64,000 nt of DNA from assembly GCA_016197205.1 (NCBI GenBank), contig JACPWG010000133.1, positions 2,777 to 66,776 of the forward strand, given 5' to 3'. The notes beneath the pieces are model-generated. The model ran no database searches. It was not told where the DNA came from and saw nothing but the letters and a program-made list of their open reading frames with translations. Both the position numbers and the translations under genes were made by a program. This DNA comes from Planctomycetota bacterium. GTDB taxonomy: Bacteria > Planctomycetota > MHYJ01 > WSZJ01 > JACPWG01. Shown here in pieces: positions 1-62,542 of this stretch. The first letter of the stretch is position 1. The number at the start of each line of letters is the position of its first letter.

Positions 1-847
1 GCCCCCGCCGGCGAGCCTTCCGACCTTCCCGCCGGAACCGTACCCGCCCCTGCCCTCGCCCGGCGCCTTGCTTCCCCCCGCGCCGTCGCTCCCGCCCGCC
101 GCCGGCGCCCAGGGCGCGCCCGCGCGCCCCGCCGCGACGCATCCGAACAGCAGCCTGGCCGTGGCCGGCCTCGTCTTCGGCCTCCTCTCGCTGCTCCTCA
201 GTTGCTGCTTCCCCTTCGCAGTCCCCGGCGGCTTCGCGGCCGTCGTCCTCGGCGTCATGGGCCTCCGCGCCATCGCGCGGCCGCCGGCGGTGCTCCAGGG
301 GCGGGGCATGGCCATCGCCGGCATCGTGCTCGGGTTCCTGGGGATGCTCGCCGGCTCCGGGGCCGCCGTGCTCTTCGTGCTCGGCGTGCGCGACCGCCAC
401 CACCCCGGGCCCTTCCGCGTGCGACCGACTCCCCCCGTCGTGCGGGTCGTCCCTGCGAGGAGCGGGGTCGAGGACGCGATCTGCCGTTCCCATCTCCTCG
501 GCCTGTGGGCGCGGGTCAAGCTGGCGAAGCAACACCTCGGGCGGTACCCGGAGAGCCTGTCCGAGCTGTGCGCGGAAGGGGGGATCGCTCCGGCCGAGCT
601 CTTGTGCCCGGCGGCCGGCGAGGGGGCCGCCGCGGGGGATCCGCCTTCGTCGTTCGTGTATGACGATCCGACCCACTCGGCGGTGGACCCCAGGCGGCTG
701 CCCGTCCTCTACGAGAGGGCGTTCCTGCACGACCCGGACTCGTCGGACCCCAACTGCGGCAAGCGGAAGTGCGTGCTTTTTTTTGACGGCCAGGTGCGCC
801 TGGTGGACGCCGCGGGCTGGGAGTCGATCGAGGAGGACAAGCACTGA
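1..847 (+). CDS. DUF4190-like membrane protein with pseudopilin/DUF1559-like C-terminal tail (5' end probably outside window)
   Basis: Frame of ORF 68-847 stays open to the window edge through Pro-rich codons. TM hairpins LAVAGLVFGLLSLLLSCCF and AIAGIVLGFLGMLAGSGAAVLFVL. Tail KCVLFFDGQVRLVD resembles the H-X9-DG pseudopilin end. Stop overlaps the next ATG (TGATG, 845-849). Confidence 0.6.
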   Translation, partial: PPPASLPTFPPEPYPPLPSPGALLPPAPSLPPAAGAQGAPARPAATHPNSSLAVAGLVFGLLSLLLSCCFPFAVPGGFAAVVLGVMGLRAIARPPAVLQGRGMAIAGIVLGFLGMLAGSGAAVLFVLGVRDRHHPGPFRVRPTPPVVRVVPARSGVEDAICRSHLLGLWARVKLAKQHLGRYPESLSELCAEGGIAPAELLCPAAGEGAAAGDPPSSFVYDDPTHSAVDPRRLPVLYERAFLHDPDSSDPNCGKRKCVLFFDGQVRLVDAAGWESIEEDKH

Positions 848-1467
848 TGCCTCTCTTCGATTTCTTCGCCCGCGCCGGTCGCGCGAAGGCCCCTCCCTCG
901 CTGGACGAAGTGCGGCGGGAGGCGGCGCGGCTGGACATCCGCGAGCACCAGTGCGTGGCCCGGATCGAGAAGCTGGAGCAGGAGAAGGAGGAGATCTTCG
1001 CCCGCGGCTCGAAGCTCAAGTCCCCGGTGCGTCGGAAGCAGCTTGCGCGGCTGTTCCGCCAGAAGAAGCTGCAGCTCGTCGACGCGGAGCGGGAGCACAT
1101 GCGGCTCTCGAAGGAGGCGATGACCCTCTCGGTCGTGCGCCGGGCGCTGGAGCGGCAGCGGGACGCGAAGGAGGGGGTGATGGGCCTCCTGTCGCGGGTG
1201 CGCGAGGAGGAGCTGGCGCGGCTCCTGGAGGACGACAAGATCACGACCGACCTCTACCTCGACAAGCTGAACCAGCTCGTCGGCGCCGCGGAGACCCCGC
1301 TGGACGACGTGTTGAAGGAGGTCGGGAAGGAAGGCATGGAGCTGATCGACATCTGGCAGCGCATGGACGAGGGGGAGATCGAGAGCGCGGAGGAGGGGAT
1401 CAAGCTGGCGGAGAAGGCGGTCAAGGAGAAGCGGGACCGCCGGCCGGAAAGCGAAGGGACGACGTAG
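847..1467 (+). CDS. Snf7/ESCRT-III-like (PspA/ESCRT-III superfamily) coiled-coil protein
   Basis: 206 aa, all-helical, with a basic N half and an acidic C half. Starts MPLFDFF; segment RKQLARLFRQKKLQLVDAEREH follows the Snf7 helix-2 pattern. High GC3. Start overlaps the upstream stop and the gene ends 3 nt before the next ATG. Confidence 0.6.
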   Translation: MPLFDFFARAGRAKAPPSLDEVRREAARLDIREHQCVARIEKLEQEKEEIFARGSKLKSPVRRKQLARLFRQKKLQLVDAEREHMRLSKEAMTLSVVRRALERQRDAKEGVMGLLSRVREEELARLLEDDKITTDLYLDKLNQLVGAAETPLDDVLKEVGKEGMELIDIWQRMDEGEIESAEEGIKLAEKAVKEKRDRRPESEGTT

Positions 1468-1470
1468 CCC

Positions 1471-2808
1471 ATGGACCTTCACGACCCGATCAAGCAGGCC
1501 CTGGCGCGGGCGAAGGAGCACGTCGACCGGCGCGAGCCGGCGAAGGCCGCGGCGGCGTACGAGAAGGCCGCGAACCTGATGGCCATCTACGCCGACCAGG
1601 CCATCGGGCGCGAGGCCGAGCTGCGCCGCAAAAAAAAGGTGCTTGAGTGGCGCGAGGTGGCCCGCCGGCTGCGGAGCGGAGAGGCCGCGCCGGAGCCGGG
1701 GGGGACGCCCGCGCGGTCGGCCGCCGCGAAATACCCGGCGCCGCGCCTCGCGTCCGCGCCCGGCTCGGCGGCGGGCGGGGGCTCGGCCGGGGAGCGCGAG
1801 CCGGCCGGCGGGGGCGGCGCGGGGGGCGAAGACGATCGGGACGACGACGCGGGCGCCGGGCCCGGCGCGACCCCGGGCGCGGGCGCGAATCCGGAGATCC
1901 GCGCGGCCGTCTCCCAGCTCATCACGTATTCGCCGCTGACCTGGGAAGACGTGGGCGGGCTCGACGAGACCAAGAACGGCATCAAGTACGCCCTCGGCAT
2001 CACCCTCGCCAAGCCCCCGGAGGGGCTGCTCCTGTCCGCTTGGACCCGCATCCTCTTTTACGGGCCGCCCGGCACGGGCAAGACGCTGCTCGCCGCCGCG
2101 ACGTCGAACGCGCTCCGCAACTCGGAGGGAGTCCCGGCCGTTTTCTTCAACGTGAAAGTCTCGTCAGTGCTGTCGAAGTACTTCGGCGAGTCGTCGAAGA
2201 TCGTCTCCGAGCTGTACGGCATGGCCCGGGATGCGTCCCCGTCCGTGATCTTCCTGGACGAGTTCGAGTCCCTGTGCGCGCGGCGCGACTCGGGCGACAC
2301 GGGCCCGGAGCGGCGCCTCCTCTCGACCCTCCTTTCCGAGCTGGACGGCCTGGAACAGAAAGGCCGGCGGGACATCTACGTCCTCACGATCGCCGCGACG
2401 AACCGCCCGTGGGACCTCGACCCCGCGATTCTCTCCCGCTTCGAAAAAAAGATCCTCATCCCGCTCCCCGACGCGGAGACGCGCCGGCGGATCCTGTTCC
2501 TGCACCTCTACAAGCGCGGCTTCCGCTCCTCGGCGAATCCCGAGATGCTGGTCCGCCTTACCGAAGGCATGAGCGGCCGGGAGATCGAGGGCTTCTGCAA
2601 GGAGGTCTCGAGCCGGATGGTGGCGGAGATGAACCGCGACCTCCCGCGCCTGGTGGACGCCGGCCTCGACGAAGTCCAGAAGTATCAGATCCGCGTCCGG
2701 GACCTCACCCCCGAGGACTTCGACCACGCCCGCGCCCGTATCCACCCCCAGACCACTCCCGAGGAGATGCGCAAGTACGTCGACTGGAGCGAGGCGCACA
2801 CGGGGTAG
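1471..2808 (+). CDS. MIT-domain AAA+ ATPase, Vps4/CdvC-like
   Basis: N-terminal three-helix MIT-like segment (aa 1-70), then an Ala/Gly/Pro linker. Walker A GPPGTGKT and Walker B IFLDEFE. Second region of homology ATNRPWDLDPAILSRFEKKILIPLPD is typical of the Vps4/spastin/katanin clade. C-terminal Vps4_C-like helix LTPEDFDHARARIHP...YVDW. Confidence 0.85.
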   Translation: MDLHDPIKQALARAKEHVDRREPAKAAAAYEKAANLMAIYADQAIGREAELRRKKKVLEWREVARRLRSGEAAPEPGGTPARSAAAKYPAPRLASAPGSAAGGGSAGEREPAGGGGAGGEDDRDDDAGAGPGATPGAGANPEIRAAVSQLITYSPLTWEDVGGLDETKNGIKYALGITLAKPPEGLLLSAWTRILFYGPPGTGKTLLAAATSNALRNSEGVPAVFFNVKVSSVLSKYFGESSKIVSELYGMARDASPSVIFLDEFESLCARRDSGDTGPERRLLSTLLSELDGLEQKGRRDIYVLTIAATNRPWDLDPAILSRFEKKILIPLPDAETRRRILFLHLYKRGFRSSANPEMLVRLTEGMSGREIEGFCKEVSSRMVAEMNRDLPRLVDAGLDEVQKYQIRVRDLTPEDFDHARARIHPQTTPEEMRKYVDWSEAHTG

Positions 2809-2828
2809 CGGCGACCGCGCAGGATCAA

Positions 2829-2861
2829 GAACCGAACCGCGACCGTAAGGGAGCGGTCTGA
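2829..2861 (+). repeat. REP-like unit GAACCGCGACCGTRAGGGAGCGGTCT
   Basis: The same roughly 30-nt motif recurs at 7950-7980, 9105-9142, 62450-62486 (reverse) and as a partial copy at 33945-33962. It contains the short stem GACCG/CGGTC. Three copies lie just after stop codons. Confidence 0.7.
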
Positions 2862-3025
2862 ATACCGCTCCACGGAAGTCGGTGACCAATAGCCGAAGGC
2901 AAGTTCGGCCGCCCGCGAGGCGCGCGAGCGAGGGGTAGTAACGGAGAACTCCGACGAGCGAGCGCAACGAAGCAGGCGGCCGAAATCGCCGAGGAAATTG
3001 GTCACCCAATGCTGTGGGGCGGTAC
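2862..3025 (+). repeat. R1 family 164-bp MITE-like element, copy a
   Basis: Near-identical copies at 33781-33944 and 58424-58587. About 29-bp imperfect terminal inverted repeats (GTACCGCTCCACGGAAGTCGGTGACCAAT vs ATTGGTCACCCAATTCTGTGGGGCGGTAC). No plausible ORF. Confidence 0.8.
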
Positions 3026-3083
3026 TAAGGGCCCGTCAAGAAACAACTCATGCCGTTCGGAAACCAGGGAGTTCCTCGGGAAA

Positions 3084-3234
3084 AGGCTCAAGGCTCAATG
3101 CTCAATTTTCAGACAATGCTCAAAGTTCAAGGCTCAGAGTCCGCAATCCCGTGCCCGGGCTGCGTTCCGTGGTGGTCATGGAGAATTGAACCTTGAGCCT
3201 TGTCTGAGTCTTGAAAACGGAGCATTGAGAATTC
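3084..3234. repeat. Long imperfect inverted repeat built from CTCAA-type short tandem words
   Basis: Left arm 3084-3139 is roughly the reverse complement of right arm 3181-3234, with a loop of about 41 nt. Locally AT-richer than the flanks. Confidence 0.6.
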
Positions 3235-3298
3235 ATGTCGCCCTCCTGCGCGTCAAAGGGGCGAGTTATTTTCTTACGGGCCCTACCCATCATCACTC

Positions 3299-3326
3299 TT
3301 GACAACCCGCCTCCATGTCGTAGGAT
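3299..3326 (+). promoter_or_regulatory. Sigma70-like promoter TTGACA-N16-TAGGAT
   Basis: TTGACAACCC -35 context is shared with the promoters at 41352, 39921 (minus) and 56378 (minus). The nearest downstream + gene starts at 3903. Confidence 0.45.
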
Positions 3327-3582
3327 AGCCGGGTGGACTTTCGCGACGCGAGAGCCTACTCTCTCTCCGGCAACGGCGGTCGCTCGAAGGCCGTGCTCCG
3401 GCGACGACGAGGCTGCGGAGCAGGACACGGGGGCCTTGCCGAAGCCATCCCCTTTTCAACGGTCGTGGGGCCCGGGCCGGCCGGCGCTCGGCGGGCGCGG
3501 TGGGTGCTGCTTGAGTAGCGCCCCACGGAGTGCGCGCGAACGGGTCCCCTCGGCGGCATAAGCCCGCGGCCCCTTTTCCCGC

Positions 3583-3837
3583 CAACAACCCGAACTGAGG
3601 CTAAACTCGACCGACGCCGGCAAATGGCTAGATGATGGCTCCGCGTCCCAGCTAGACGCGGGCGAAATTTGACTTTTTGCAATTTGAAATTCGACCCGGC
3701 CGCGTGGGGCGAATGCGAGACTCTTACACAGAGACGCGGAGACGCAGAGGCCGGGCGCTGAGTCCACCGTCCTCTACCGGCGAGGATCTCTGGCAACGCG
3801 CGGAGAGATCGGTTTTAGCTTCACTTCGGCTTGTTGT
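3583..3837 (+). repeat. R3 family ~255-bp dispersed repeat, copy a
   Basis: Aligns by eye along its whole length with 17063-17317. Ends are CAACAACCCGAA and TTCGGCTTGTTG (inverted). Contains an AT-rich core TTTTGCAATTTGAAATTCG. Confidence 0.75.
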
Positions 3838-3902
3838 CTCCCACCGCGTCCAGCGCCGTCCCCGGGACGCCCCACGCTCGCGGCTTCAGCCGCTCGAGGC
3901 AG

Positions 3903-7869: not shown

Positions 7870-7980
7870 GGGAGCCACCGAAGAGACGAGCCACCGAAGA
7901 CGCCGAACACGCCGAAGGACGAAAAGAGCGCCAAGCGAGCGCAGGGCCAAACGGAACCGCGACCGTGAGGGAGCGGTCTC
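7870..7980 (+). repeat. Composite repeat (GAGCCACCGAAGAC...GGACGAAA module plus REP unit)
   Basis: The same two modules occur in reverse orientation at 62450-62542. A partial first module is at 58630-58680. Confidence 0.65.
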
Positions 7981-9104: not shown

Positions 9105-9142
9105 CGGAACGGAACCGCGACCGTGACGGAGCGGTCTGAGCG
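9105..9142 (+). repeat. REP-like unit
   Basis: GGAACCGCGACCGTGACGGAGCGGTCTGAG lies 21 nt after the wza-like stop. Confidence 0.65.
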
Positions 9143-62449: not shown

Positions 62450-62542
62450 GCTGAGACCGCTCCCTCACGGTCGCGGTTCGGATCGGCTGTACCGGTCGAT
62501 TCGCAAGCGTTTCGTCCTTCGGTGTCTTCGGTGGCTCGTCCC
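62450..62542 (-). repeat. Composite repeat (REP unit plus GAGCCACCGAAGAC module), reverse orientation
   Basis: Reverse complement of the 7870-7980 arrangement. Confidence 0.65.

Follow-up and report, generated by a model that had tools for sequence, protein, structure and literature searches.

Can a bacterium carry the paired machinery of ESCRT-III and Vps4? The literature places such pairs in archaea and eukaryotes only (PMC10936438; PMC7619361). The usual, accepted relatives of ESCRT-III in bacteria are PspA and Vipp1 (PMC8281802), and these are not known to use an ATPase of the Vps4 clade (PMC7619361). Three genes at the start of a 64,000-nucleotide stretch of a Planctomycetota contig (hereafter the window) raise the question, and the original prediction for them was a Cdv-like membrane-remodelling module. 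In our reading, which we hold at a probability of roughly 0.6, genes 2 and 3 are the central partners of an ESCRT-III/Vps4-like system for membrane remodelling in bacteria. That part of the proposal most likely stands; orthology of the ATPase to CdvC and a CdvA-like role for gene 1 do not.

All three reading frames lie on the forward strand (Table 1). Genes 1 and 2 overlap at their stop and start codons, as translationally coupled genes typically do, and may be coupled in this way; between the stop codon of gene 2 (1465-1467) and the ATG of gene 3 (1471) lies the spacer CCC (1468-1470). This packing is as predicted. The unit is not limited to three genes, as had been assumed, and belongs to a larger cluster that the window edge truncates: the first 106 residues of gene 1 and a paralogue of gene 2 (E3a) lie just upstream of it. 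Downstream of gene 3, a GC-rich hairpin repeat, present four times in the window, is a possible marker of where the transcription unit ends.

Table 1. Features of the locus (window coordinates).
Feature	Position	Strand	Remarks
Gene 1, cut by window edge	1..847	+	C-terminal 281 residues of a 387-aa membrane protein
Gene 1 hydrophobic segments, probably transmembrane	155..388	+	nt 155-211, 233-274, 308-388; Kyte-Doolittle scan
TGATG	845..849	+	gene 1 stop overlaps gene 2 start
Gene 2 (E3b), 206 aa	847..1467	+	ESCRT-III-like coiled-coil protein; family absent from Pfam
Gene 2 N-terminal motif MPLFDFFARAGRAK	847..888	+	hydrophobic then basic
Gene 2 hairpin-tip region GSKLKSPVRRKQLARLF	1006..1056	+	between two long helices; aligned to CHMP alpha1/alpha2 turn
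Gene 2 conserved C-terminal segment IWQRMDEGEIESAEEGIKLAEKAVKEK	1351..1431	+	'(D/E)..h..G(L/I)K..h' helix
Gene 3 (AAA1), 445 aa	1471..2808	+	MIT-AAA ATPase, Vps4/katanin/spastin ("meiotic") clade
MIT-like three-helix bundle, residues 1-70	1471..1680	+	helices 4-19, 23-42, 47-69; predicted from model
Low-complexity Ala/Gly/Pro/Asp linker, MIT to AAA core	1681..1920	+	about 40 residues longer than in orthologues
Walker A GPPGTGKT	2062..2085	+	from sequence
Pore loop 1 SKYFGESSK	2173..2199	+	cf. Vps4 SKWMGESEK, katanin SKYRGESEK
Walker B VIFLDEFE	2245..2268	+	from sequence
Second region of homology AATNRPWDLDPAILSRFEKKILIPLPD	2392..2472	+	meiotic-clade type (no RPGRFD); residues 308-334
Vps4_C-like C-terminal helix region, LTPEDF...HPQTTPEEMRKYVDWSEAH	2704..2799	+	PF09336, below cut-off
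24-nt GC-rich hairpin repeat	2835..2858	+	27 nt past gene 3 stop

Gene 1 does not start at position 68, because its frame is open to base 2 and an independent public contig of 3.9 kb (L005), which overlaps the window over 2860 nt with 0 mismatches, encodes the full 387-aa protein; the window covers residues 107-387. A Pfam search identifies DUF4190 (PF13828, E 1.8e-11). Read from its N terminus, which lies outside the window, the complete protein shows a Cys4 Zn-ribbon-like motif (also outside), then a Pro-rich linker, the DUF4190 hydrophobic region, and a C-terminal domain that ends in ...KRKCVLFFDGQVRLVD; a Zn ribbon and a pseudopilin-like C-terminal domain are our reading of the sequence only. 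Its three hydrophobic stretches could form 3-4 transmembrane helices. The DUF4190 match and these stretches agree with the membrane protein that had been predicted. A CdvA-like adaptor is rejected: gene 1 is a Zn-ribbon/DUF4190 membrane protein with nothing in common with CdvA among the features tested.

Gene 3 encodes an MIT-domain AAA ATPase of the Vps4/katanin/spastin clade. Its AAA core matches PF00004 (E 1e-34), both Walker motifs are intact, and the pore loop is aromatic. In a neighbour-joining tree (200 bootstraps), the gene 3 family groups with Vps4, CdvC, katanin, spastin, and ATAD1 at 100% bootstrap, and p97 D1/D2, PAN, and FtsH fall outside; within the meiotic clade, it shows no specific grouping with Vps4/CdvC. 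The second region of homology is present as predicted, with S-R (LSRF, a single Arg) where Vps4, CdvC, spastin, and katanin have R-R, and S-R (or A-R) is conserved across the family, Chloroflexota-type loci included. Against the NCBIfam CdvC model, gene 3 scores 152 bits, where the cut-off is 650. On this score, the single Arg, and the lack of grouping with either, orthology to CdvC or Vps4 is rejected.

Of the three Vps4 modules originally predicted, the AAA core is confirmed, the MIT fold is backed by structural modelling, and the Vps4_C domain stays below threshold (PF09336, 15.7 bits versus a cut-off of 21.3); precomputed annotation assigns PF09336 to about a dozen among the 120 gene 3 orthologues listed. 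Pfam finds no MIT match in gene 3. The model of the N-terminal domain (pLDDT 86; above 90 over residues 1-70) confidently predicts an MIT fold, with TM-scores of 0.58-0.84 (mostly 0.65-0.84; rmsd 1.4-2 A for matches at 0.7-0.84) to the MIT domains of MITD1, VPS4A/B, yeast Vps4, katanin p60, NRBF2, and CdvC. About 35 of its best 50 PDB matches are MIT domains, with Foldseek probabilities of up to 1.00 (0.93-1.00 for most). Together with the meiotic-clade AAA core and the C-terminal helix, this fold supports a modular build like that of Vps4.

Gene 2 founds a new family, here named E3, of 24 clusters and 242 representatives. As predicted, the protein is all-helical in its AlphaFold2 model (pLDDT 71), with a basic N half (net charge +10) and an acidic C half (-11). 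The model contains a long hairpin, and its helices (residues 4-11, 19-56, 60-109, 111-116, 120-128, 134-147, 152-175, and 181-197) follow the order alpha0, hairpin, alpha4, alpha5, alpha6. The N-terminal motif is a candidate membrane-insertion helix (alpha0), and hhalign sets the family's LF motif onto the N-terminal 'LFG' of CHMPs. The hairpin tip holds invariant residues G54, K58, S59, R62, R63, L66, A67, and R68. The C-terminal helix is common to E3b, E3a, and the Snf7-like family of related loci; since its spacing resembles MIM1, it is a candidate MIT-binding motif. An ESCRT-III-like architecture (helix order, charge asymmetry, N-terminal LF motif, MIM1-like tail) is supported; homology to ESCRT-III is not proven.

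Sequence searches of gene 2 against Pfam, NCBIfam, and the PDB returned no family or PDB match at all, and neither gene 2 nor its close family matched Snf7 (PF03357) or PspA_IM30 (PF04012). Narrow-profile hhalign comparisons of E3 with CHMP/Snf7, PspA/Vipp1, and the neighbouring Snf7-like family were null. The only positive profile result, a modest one, came from a broad family profile, homologous to E3a/E3b (P 2e-31), which aligned collinearly over 133 columns (P 6e-5, probability 65%) with a small CHMP/Snf7 reference of six sequences validated by Pfam only. Even the best of 122 controls scored about 100-fold worse (best of 120 shuffles, 0.008; two reversed alignments, 0.012 and 0.022), and the match pairs the N-terminal LF motif, the hairpin-tip Gly, and the alpha4 'mDl..L' with their CHMP counterparts. 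In the same test, the known homology of PspA and CHMP scores worse (P 1.4e-3), so that a true but remote member can be expected to score weakly. The top PDB fold matches of the gene 2 model are mostly ESCRT-III, none of them significant (Foldseek E >= 0.45; TM-scores 0.2-0.5), in a list that also holds spectrin, SNARE, designed helical bundles, and axonemal coiled coils. The predicted Snf7/CHMP likeness of gene 2 is thus carried by architecture and the broad profile, and finds no echo in direct Pfam, NCBIfam, or narrow-profile tests.

The pair is conserved well beyond this genome. An E3 gene lies directly upstream of an AAA1-type ATPase in 51 of 54 testable loci, a recurrence that makes the pairing more than chance, and the two gene types neighbour each other in almost every locus with either one; gene 1 is not conserved at the same position in the related loci surveyed. 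In most relatives, the cluster encodes two more coiled-coil proteins, one a second E3 paralogue and the other a third, related protein, as well as a Pfam-Snf7-matching protein, whose gene lies downstream of the ATPase in 45 of 60 loci and has no counterpart in this window. Twelve of 17 members of this Snf7-like family match PF03357 (best E 2.3e-6), and its hhalign probability against CHMPs is 89%. Many related loci encode, besides AAA1, a different MIT-like AAA (AAA2) and a conserved protein, B279; in the A616 family, encoded upstream in related loci, 5 of 14 members match SPFH/Band_7. Long contigs, reaching 198 kb, carry the cluster in 19 species-level metagenome-assembled genomes (MAGs) of Planctomycetota from different studies, and it is also present in one Chloroflexota MAG. 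The closest relatives are all Planctomycetota MAGs, and operon GC (71.4%) lies inside the window range (65.6-72.8%), in keeping with the bacterial host context originally proposed.

The explanation that competes best holds that gene 3 is a Vps4/katanin-clade unfoldase and gene 2 a coiled-coil protein unrelated to ESCRT-III, serving the ATPase as adaptor or substrate; it could be, for instance, a filament of cytoskeletal or scaffold type that the ATPase severs or recycles. The ESCRT-III likeness would then have arisen by convergence, as it might in any helical hairpin with charged halves. Katanin and spastin, which are meiotic-clade ATPases, act on non-ESCRT polymers. The missing direct sequence link of gene 2 to Snf7 or PspA, its mixed and non-significant fold matches, and the lack of hhalign signal either way between E3 and the true Snf7-like family also suit this explanation. 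Against it stand the control-beating CHMP/Snf7 match with its three aligned landmarks, the still weaker score of the accepted PspA-CHMP homology, the C-terminal motif common to gene 2 and the Snf7-like neighbour, and the presence of E3 and a Pfam-Snf7-matching gene in one operon in most lineages. We consider it unlikely, at perhaps one chance in a few.

Alternatively, gene 2 could be a divergent PspA that coats and stabilises damaged membrane in an envelope-stress system, and the ATPase might act as its regulator, in the manner of PspF or of the two-domain AAA+ proteins encoded beside some PspA genes. Like gene 2, PspA and Vipp1 are bacterial proteins of about 200-220 aa, helical hairpins with an N-terminal amphipathic helix that presumably act on the cytoplasmic membrane from its inner side; on our reading of the sequence, the alpha0-like motif of gene 2 resembles MGIFSRF / MGLFDRL. 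PspA-AAA+ associations are on record (Ravi et al. 2024, PMC11237479), and SPFH proteins, matched by part of the A616 family, are known PspA partners (PMC10936438). However, gene 2 lacks a PF04012 match, hhalign against PspA+Vipp1 is null for the narrow and the broad E3 profile alike (P 0.15-0.26), and the weak profile signal that exists favours Snf7/CHMP. The partner genes differ too: gene 3 is an MIT-bearing meiotic-clade enzyme, not a PspF-type sigma-54 activator, and PspB/C, LiaF, and Toastrack partners were not seen in the surveyed loci. This makes a PspA-type system improbable.

Still less credible is an anti-phage or conflict system built around an IetA/IteA-like AAA ATPase, with the coiled-coil protein as sensor or effector. 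Gene 3 does match PADLOC IetA models (E 5e-33) and NCBIfam IteA (104 bits), and Ser/Thr kinase genes border some distant loci. These matches span the generic AAA core only, at 104 bits versus a 510-bit cut-off; there is no IetS protease partner, and no other cluster protein matches PADLOC. The cluster is syntenic and vertically conserved in many MAG species, not patchy or island-like, and the GC content of the operon is unremarkable. A wrong assembly or binning of archaeal DNA with a bacterial contig, which the described confinement of such pairs would favour, is effectively refuted by the GC content, the identical L005 assembly, the 19 Planctomycetota MAG species, and the lack of a close archaeal homologue among the top matches of gene 2 or gene 3.

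The ESCRT-III/Vps4-like pair can be set beside several known systems. Archaeal Cdv and other archaeal ESCRT-III/Vps4 operons (Makarova et al. 2024, PMC10936438) also combine small ESCRT-III-type coiled-coil genes, often several paralogues, with a single-ring MIT-AAA; CdvC likewise lacks the eukaryotic beta-domain, and SPFH-like and membrane proteins lie near some systems. The present locus differs in its bacterial host, in a gene 2 that lacks a winged-helix extension and any detectable membership of the Snf7/CdvB family, in the absence of CdvA, in the CdvC score and S-R dipeptide of gene 3, and in the AAA2 and B279 of many relatives, which have no Cdv counterpart. Eukaryotic ESCRT-III (Snf7/CHMP) shares the predicted alpha0/hairpin/alpha4-5 order, the charged halves, the N-terminal LF(G) motif, the C-terminal amphipathic helix with MIM1-like spacing, and a partner ATPase with an MIT domain and a K(W/Y)xGES pore loop. 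Unlike it, gene 2 has no PF03357 match, its weak profile-profile signal comes via distant family members only, and ESCRT-0/I/II, Vta1, and the Vps4 beta-domain are absent here. Katanin and spastin, microtubule-severing ATPases of the meiotic clade, give gene 3 its best single-domain PDB scores (katanin p60, 152 bits; spastin, 143 bits), in alignments that reach residues 439-441, and they have an MIT-type N-terminal domain and a C-terminal helix. Unlike gene 3, they are eukaryotic, and no tubulin-type substrate is evident here, where the partner is an ESCRT-III-like coiled coil.

The view that the known bacterial relatives do without Vps4 calls for some qualification: MIT+Vps4-like ATPases have already been reported in bacteria, Planctomycetes included, with snf7 replaced (Ravi et al. 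2024, PMC11237479, supplement). Those operons ('MIT+Vps4-like AAA -> TPR+TM', e.g., ACB74714.1 of Opitutus; supplementary text 2.2) share the membrane-proximal context. There a TPR-6TM protein reportedly displaces snf7, whereas here an ESCRT-III-like gene precedes the ATPase and, in relatives, a Snf7-family gene follows it. The TPR-linked ATPase is probably the AAA2 of related loci, not gene 3.

In the mechanism that we propose, gene 2, with E3a, would polymerise on the cytoplasmic face of the inner membrane, which it would contact through its N-terminal hydrophobic/basic motif and basic hairpin. The MIT domain of an AAA1 hexamer would dock onto the conserved C-terminal '..G(L/I)K..' helix, and the ATPase would draw subunits into and through its pore, thereby remodelling or recycling the polymer. 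Gene 1 may be a lineage-specific membrane partner or cargo. Candidate processes served by the module are membrane repair, vesicle or invagination formation, and division. A pairing of a divergent ESCRT-III-like protein with an adjacent Vps4-type "disassembly" ATPase, so far regarded as a membrane-cutting machine of archaea and eukaryotes, is conserved across dozens of bacterial genomes.

Gene 2 of the window, which encodes the small protein E3b of the E3 coiled-coil family, and gene 3, which encodes an ATPase that we call AAA1, form a pair that recurs well beyond this contig. Genomic context is the strongest evidence for the nature of this pair. We surveyed 76 loci with an AAA1-type gene, metagenome loci added. 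An E3 gene lies immediately 5' of AAA1 in 51 of the 54 testable loci, which bears out the pairing of genes 2 and 3 in the original prediction, and the association reaches loci where AAA1 is only 41% identical. A Snf7-like gene is found 3' of AAA1 in 45 of 60 loci. The common order across 19 loci from Planctomycetota metagenome-assembled genomes (MAGs) is A616-B279-C236cc-E3a-E3b-(TM protein)-AAA1-Snf7-like-(AAA2-Y210-TPR), where E3a is a paralogue of E3b and AAA2 is a second ATPase. One MAG labelled Chloroflexota carries B279-like - E3 - AAA1 - Snf7-like - AAA2 - beta-propeller. Finally, one group of loci consists of B279 - E3 - AAA1 only, without the Snf7-like gene. The window resembles this group: a search of the region after gene 3 (2700-3900) and of the rest of the 64 kb gave neither a Snf7-like gene nor a remnant.

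Members of the Snf7-like family that accompanies the pair are 196-211 aa long, and the Pfam Snf7 model matches 12 of 17 (best E 2.3e-6); comparison of the family with the CHMPs by hhalign gives a probability of 89%. The family comprises >900 clusters, and most of the 120 listed carry PF03357. NCBI applies the name 'Snf7 family protein' to some of these neighbours. The Snf7-like protein begins MGIFKSKEE and ends in a tail that resembles MIM1, a motif bound by MIT domains (D..I..GLK..I).

The original prediction described a unit of three genes. The tight packing stands, with an overlap of stop and start codons at one junction and a short spacing at the other (see the table), but the extent does not. 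The frame of gene 1 is open to base 2 and is cut by the window edge; a public 3.9-kb contig (L005), which agrees with the window at every base of a 2860-nt overlap, gives a full-length product of 387 aa. On the same contig, the gene for E3a, here 205 aa, lies at 61-675 and adjoins gene 1 upstream, outside the window. Since gene 1 is cut and E3a lies beyond the edge, the unit exceeds three genes and the operon is truncated by the window. This copy of E3a is without the C-terminal G-L-K motif that is present in most E3a orthologues.

Coordinates of the genes and elements in the window and in related loci (L001, L002, L025, L028, and L029 are related loci)
Feature	Location	Strand	Remarks
Gene 1 (end)	window 847	+	stop overlaps the gene 2 ATG (TGATG, 845-849)
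Gene 2 (E3b)	window 847..1467	+	206 aa
Gene 3 (AAA1)	window 1471..2808	+	445 aa; starts 3 nt past the gene 2 stop
24-nt GC-rich repeat AACCGCGACCGTAAGGGAGCGGTC	window 2835-2858, 7955-7978, 9113-9136	+	
24-nt GC-rich repeat AACCGCGACCGTAAGGGAGCGGTC	window 62455-62478	-	
A616 family	L001 1896-3746		~610 aa; first gene of the cluster
B279 family	L001 3749-4588; L028 59-1294; L029 4712-5965		precedes E3 in almost all loci
C236cc family	L001 4597-5307		coiled coil, 217-236 aa; E3-related via the broad profile
Snf7-like gene	L001 8114-8716; L002 8518-9114; L028 3489-4124		after AAA1 in most relatives
AAA2	L001 9451-10605; L025 3770-4882; L028 4146-5288		MIT-like N-terminus
Kinase genes	L025 4955-6796; L028 7982-8094; L029 1-850, 2598-4370		

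Gene 3 is an MIT-AAA ATPase of the Vps4/katanin/spastin clade. Pfam detects the AAA domain (E 1e-34), and the NCBIfam models for PAN, Cdc48, and CdvC score near-equally, at ~150-160 bits, all far under their cut-offs. Gene 3 was compared with ten reference AAA domains; two were checked by Pfam, and the katanin score agrees with the PDB search. The top scores belong to katanin, spastin, and Vps4, with katanin slightly above Vps4, and the katanin and spastin alignments extend to the C-terminus. In a neighbour-joining tree (a distance method; 200 bootstraps, these ten references only), AAA1 groups with Vps4, CdvC, katanin, spastin, and ATAD1 at 100% bootstrap, and p97 D1/D2, PAN, FtsH, and AAA2 fall outside the group. 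The second region of homology (SRH), AATNRPWDLDPAILSRFEKKILIPLPD, carries 'NRPW...RFEKK' and is without RPGRFD, and the pore loop is SKYFGESSK. Tree, SRH, and pore loop agree with the earlier placement of the core in this so-called meiotic clade. Resolution inside the clade is another matter: the reference-only group there has 23% support. With this figure, and with a score of 152 bits against the 650-bit cut-off of the CdvC equivalog, we reject gene 3 as an orthologue of CdvC or Vps4.

Two further features characterize the core. The SRH of gene 3 holds a single arginine finger (LSRF), with Ser in place of the first Arg; S-R or A-R is kept across the AAA1 family, Chloroflexota-type loci included, and every meiotic reference reads R-R. 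Gene 3 has a short C-terminal region, as do CdvC, katanin, and spastin, whereas eukaryotic Vps4 has a beta-domain insertion; this Vta1-binding insertion is absent from the gene 3 lid according to the sequence reading and alignment lengths. At the Vps4_C-like end that had been claimed for gene 3, PF09336 reaches 15.7 bits, below its 21.3-bit cut-off, and katanin and spastin align with the motif 'P.TT.EEM.KY..W' at their C-termini. Precomputed annotation places PF09336 on about a dozen of 120 listed AAA1 orthologues.

The N-terminal MIT domain of the original prediction emerges from structure rather than sequence. Pfam did not detect MIT on gene 3, and among the N-termini of 19 AAA1 orthologues PF04212 matched 1 (E 0.084) and TPR_2 matched 10. 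Since the Pfam result was essentially negative, the MIT fold was examined by modelling. Residues 1-70, modelled from a 23-sequence alignment, have a pLDDT above 90 throughout, and Foldseek matches of this model in the PDB are mostly MIT domains, with probability up to 1.00. They include MITD1, VPS4A/B, yeast Vps4, katanin p60, NRBF2, calpain-7, chitin synthase, and Sulfolobus CdvC, at TM 0.58-0.84 (mostly 0.65-0.84) and rmsd 1.4-3.0 A (mostly 1.4-2.1 A). On the modelled structure, the N-terminal domain is an MIT fold that the Pfam MIT model misses.

Gene 2 is very divergent. Its product has no Pfam match at E <= 1, neither to Snf7 nor to PspA_IM30, and is thus rejected as a PF03357 member at the Pfam gathering score; searches of NCBIfam and of PDB sequences, with the single sequence and with profiles against PDB, gave no family match and no ESCRT-III entry. 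The Pfam Snf7 model matches 1 of 58 distant E3 members (E 0.0035). A word search for the E3 family returns 24 clusters, all labelled Planctomycetota or unlabelled and metagenomic, and an exhaustive profile search returns 242 representatives. By hhalign, a narrow profile of E3a and E3b compared with CHMP/Snf7 gives P 0.11, and a comparison of the narrow profile with the neighbouring Snf7-like family is null. The sole PDB-sequence match of the gene 2 profiles is influenza HA2, residues 94-174 (E 0.015-0.1), over window 1351-1467, about residues 118-202 of gene 2. This match, with the pattern LLE..., ...W.K.D...ES...G, is probably a chance likeness of helical segments.

Beside these null results stands an alternative: gene 2 would encode a coiled coil that is not homologous to ESCRT-III and serves as the substrate of a katanin-like unfoldase. 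We consider this account the less probable one, and the broader comparisons bear on it. A broad E3 profile, built from 57 aligned distant members, shows clear homology to E3a/E3b (P 2e-31) and to C236cc (P 7.5e-11). Against CHMP/Snf7, represented by a small reference of six sequences validated by Pfam, hhalign gives P 6e-5 and a probability of 65%, with 133 columns in collinear alignment. In it, the N-terminal LF(G), the hairpin-tip Gly, and the alpha4 'mDl..L' motif coincide. None of the controls, namely 60 column shuffles, 60 block shuffles, and 2 reversals, fell under P 0.008. The accepted homology of PspA and CHMP reaches only P 1.4e-3 in the same set-up; the test is therefore of low power, and a weak positive carries some weight.

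The AlphaFold2 model of gene 2 is all-helical (pLDDT 71), with a short helix at 4-11, a long hairpin at 19-56 and 60-109, and five shorter predicted helices at 111-116, 120-128, 134-147, 152-175, and 181-197. Its top Foldseek matches in the PDB are mostly of the ESCRT-III superfamily, namely Snf7, CHMP1B, CHMP2A/3, CdvB/B2, Asgard ESCRT-IIIB, Vipp1, and PspA, none of them significant (E 0.45-3.7, TM 0.2-0.5). The basic N half and acidic C half that had been noticed in gene 2 are present, with net charges of +10 and -11; mean values are +8.7 and -12.6 for the E3 family and +11.5 and -16.1 for the neighbouring Snf7-like family. The motif '(D/E)..h..G(L/I)K..h' occurs in a C-terminal helix of 19 of 19 E3b, 15 of 18 E3a, and 17 of 17 Snf7-like proteins. 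Its hydrophobic spacing equals that of MIM1, and its presence in all 3 groups suggests, at the level of sequence, a common docking site for MIT domains. In sum, the Snf7-like reading of gene 2 gains from the charged halves and from the pairing with the ATPase but finds no Pfam Snf7 match, and its profile signal is weak. The architecture is ESCRT-III-like and homology to ESCRT-III is weakly supported; from these comparisons, gene 2 is a likely member of the superfamily.

Other explanations fare worse. A PspA-type stress system is unlikely: gene 2 is without a match to PspA/Vipp1 (PF04012) in Pfam, E3 profiles against PspA plus Vipp1 give P 0.15-0.26 by hhalign, and the type of ATPase does not fit. 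We also regard a defence system as unlikely, given that the similarity returned by PADLOC is generic to AAA proteins only. Archaeal contamination or a chimeric contig is ruled out by composition, by the identical independent contig L005, and by recurrence in bacterial MAGs, in keeping with the bacterial origin first argued for the locus.

Gene 1 does not fill the role of CdvA-like adaptor that had been proposed for it. CdvA combines a PRC-barrel-like N domain with a helical region and, at the C-terminus, a peptide that binds CdvB. The gene 1 product matches only DUF4190 in Pfam and is an integral membrane protein with three hydrophobic stretches, a Zn-ribbon-like N-terminus, a Pro-rich linker, and a C-terminal domain. 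It is found at this position in none of the 19 related genome loci, and we reject the CdvA assignment. Related operons have other small membrane proteins instead, either TM165 or a 77-aa Zn-ribbon-TM protein. Thus, a membrane partner recurs, and it is non-orthologous between lineages.

The ~1 kb past the operon (2809-3830), where relatives carry the Snf7-like gene, is without a convincing gene or a Snf7-like remnant and includes a lower-GC stretch. It has one sigma-70-like promoter match, at 3299-3326. Rfam gave nothing on this gap, and a terminator scan gave nothing at the operon end. The 24-nt repeat, with four copies in the window against none expected by chance, has its first copy 27 nt past the stop of the ATPase gene. 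It holds a small hairpin, GACCG...CGGTC, and from its sequence looks like an intergenic element of REP or terminator type.

Several families flank the pair in related loci. In A616, an N-terminal SPFH/Band_7 domain is detected in 5 of 14 members (best E 2.4e-4) and PQQ/WD40-type beta-propellers in 5 of 14. PspA and some archaeal ESCRT loci are known to have SPFH proteins as partners. B279 has an N-terminal HTH_17 and a Cys-rich segment in Chloroflexota-type loci and is otherwise without a Pfam match. The Lys/Glu-rich tail of C236cc ends in a conserved acidic PE(I/V)xFEE or EEEELE. Several distant E3-AAA loci are flanked by genes for Ser/Thr protein kinases, and the kinase encoded in L025 and L029 also has an FGE-sulfatase-type region (PF03781 in L029, by sequence reading in L025). 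AAA2 usually lies 3' of the Snf7-like gene, often with a TPR protein next. It has an SRH of the Cdc48/PAN type (RPGRLD), the pore loop NKWVGESEK, and a Vps4_C score of 22.3 bits, and could be what Ravi et al. 2024 describe as a bacterial 'VPS4-like + TPR' ATPase.

In the literature, a Vps4-like regulator 'appears absent in bacteria' (PMC7619361), and a 2025 review describes a Vps4-like ATPase as apparently missing from bacteria. Ravi et al. 2024 report that MIT+Vps4-like ATPases were transferred to bacteria, Planctomycetes included, where snf7 was displaced by a TPR-6TM protein; some bacterial associations of PspA/Snf7 with AAA+ proteins are also mentioned (PMC11237479). The present loci differ: an E3 gene precedes the ATPase, and a Snf7-family gene follows in most lineages. 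We found no published description of the E3-AAA1 cluster in the literature searched. What is new is that a Vps4-clade MIT-AAA ATPase nearly always comes after a protein of a new ESCRT-III-like family, in many Planctomycetota and one Chloroflexota MAG. The observation behind the original prediction is confirmed, and its interpretation as a Cdv-like module is supported in part. The description that fits the module best is a bacterial ESCRT-III/Vps4-like system in which the ESCRT-III-type subunit comes from a very divergent new family.

Of this system, the window contains no more than the E3b-AAA1 core, together with a lineage-specific membrane protein. With a probability of roughly one in five, the wider cluster would be an undescribed and complete multi-subunit ESCRT-like machine for reverse-topology scission or shaping, in Planctomycetota and at least some Chloroflexota. 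Such a machine would combine 3-4 ESCRT-III-type paralogues (E3a, E3b, C236cc, and the Snf7-family protein) with two distinct MIT-AAA ATPases, the SPFH/beta-propeller protein, and the B279 partner. Planctomycetes are known for FtsZ-independent division and for membrane invaginations, and the machine might serve either. Its origin could be ancient and not a recent transfer from archaea, which would change the supposed origin of Vps4 and of its partnership with ESCRT-III. The system is of high interest because it runs counter to a current generalisation and can be tested directly in vitro; two or three proteins are few enough for reconstitution. If the mechanism holds, bacteria would possess an ESCRT-type machine that remodels membranes at the expense of ATP, ideas on where the ESCRT-III/Vps4 partnership arose would have to be revisited, and the unexplained FtsZ-less division and membrane invaginations of planctomycetes would gain a concrete candidate.
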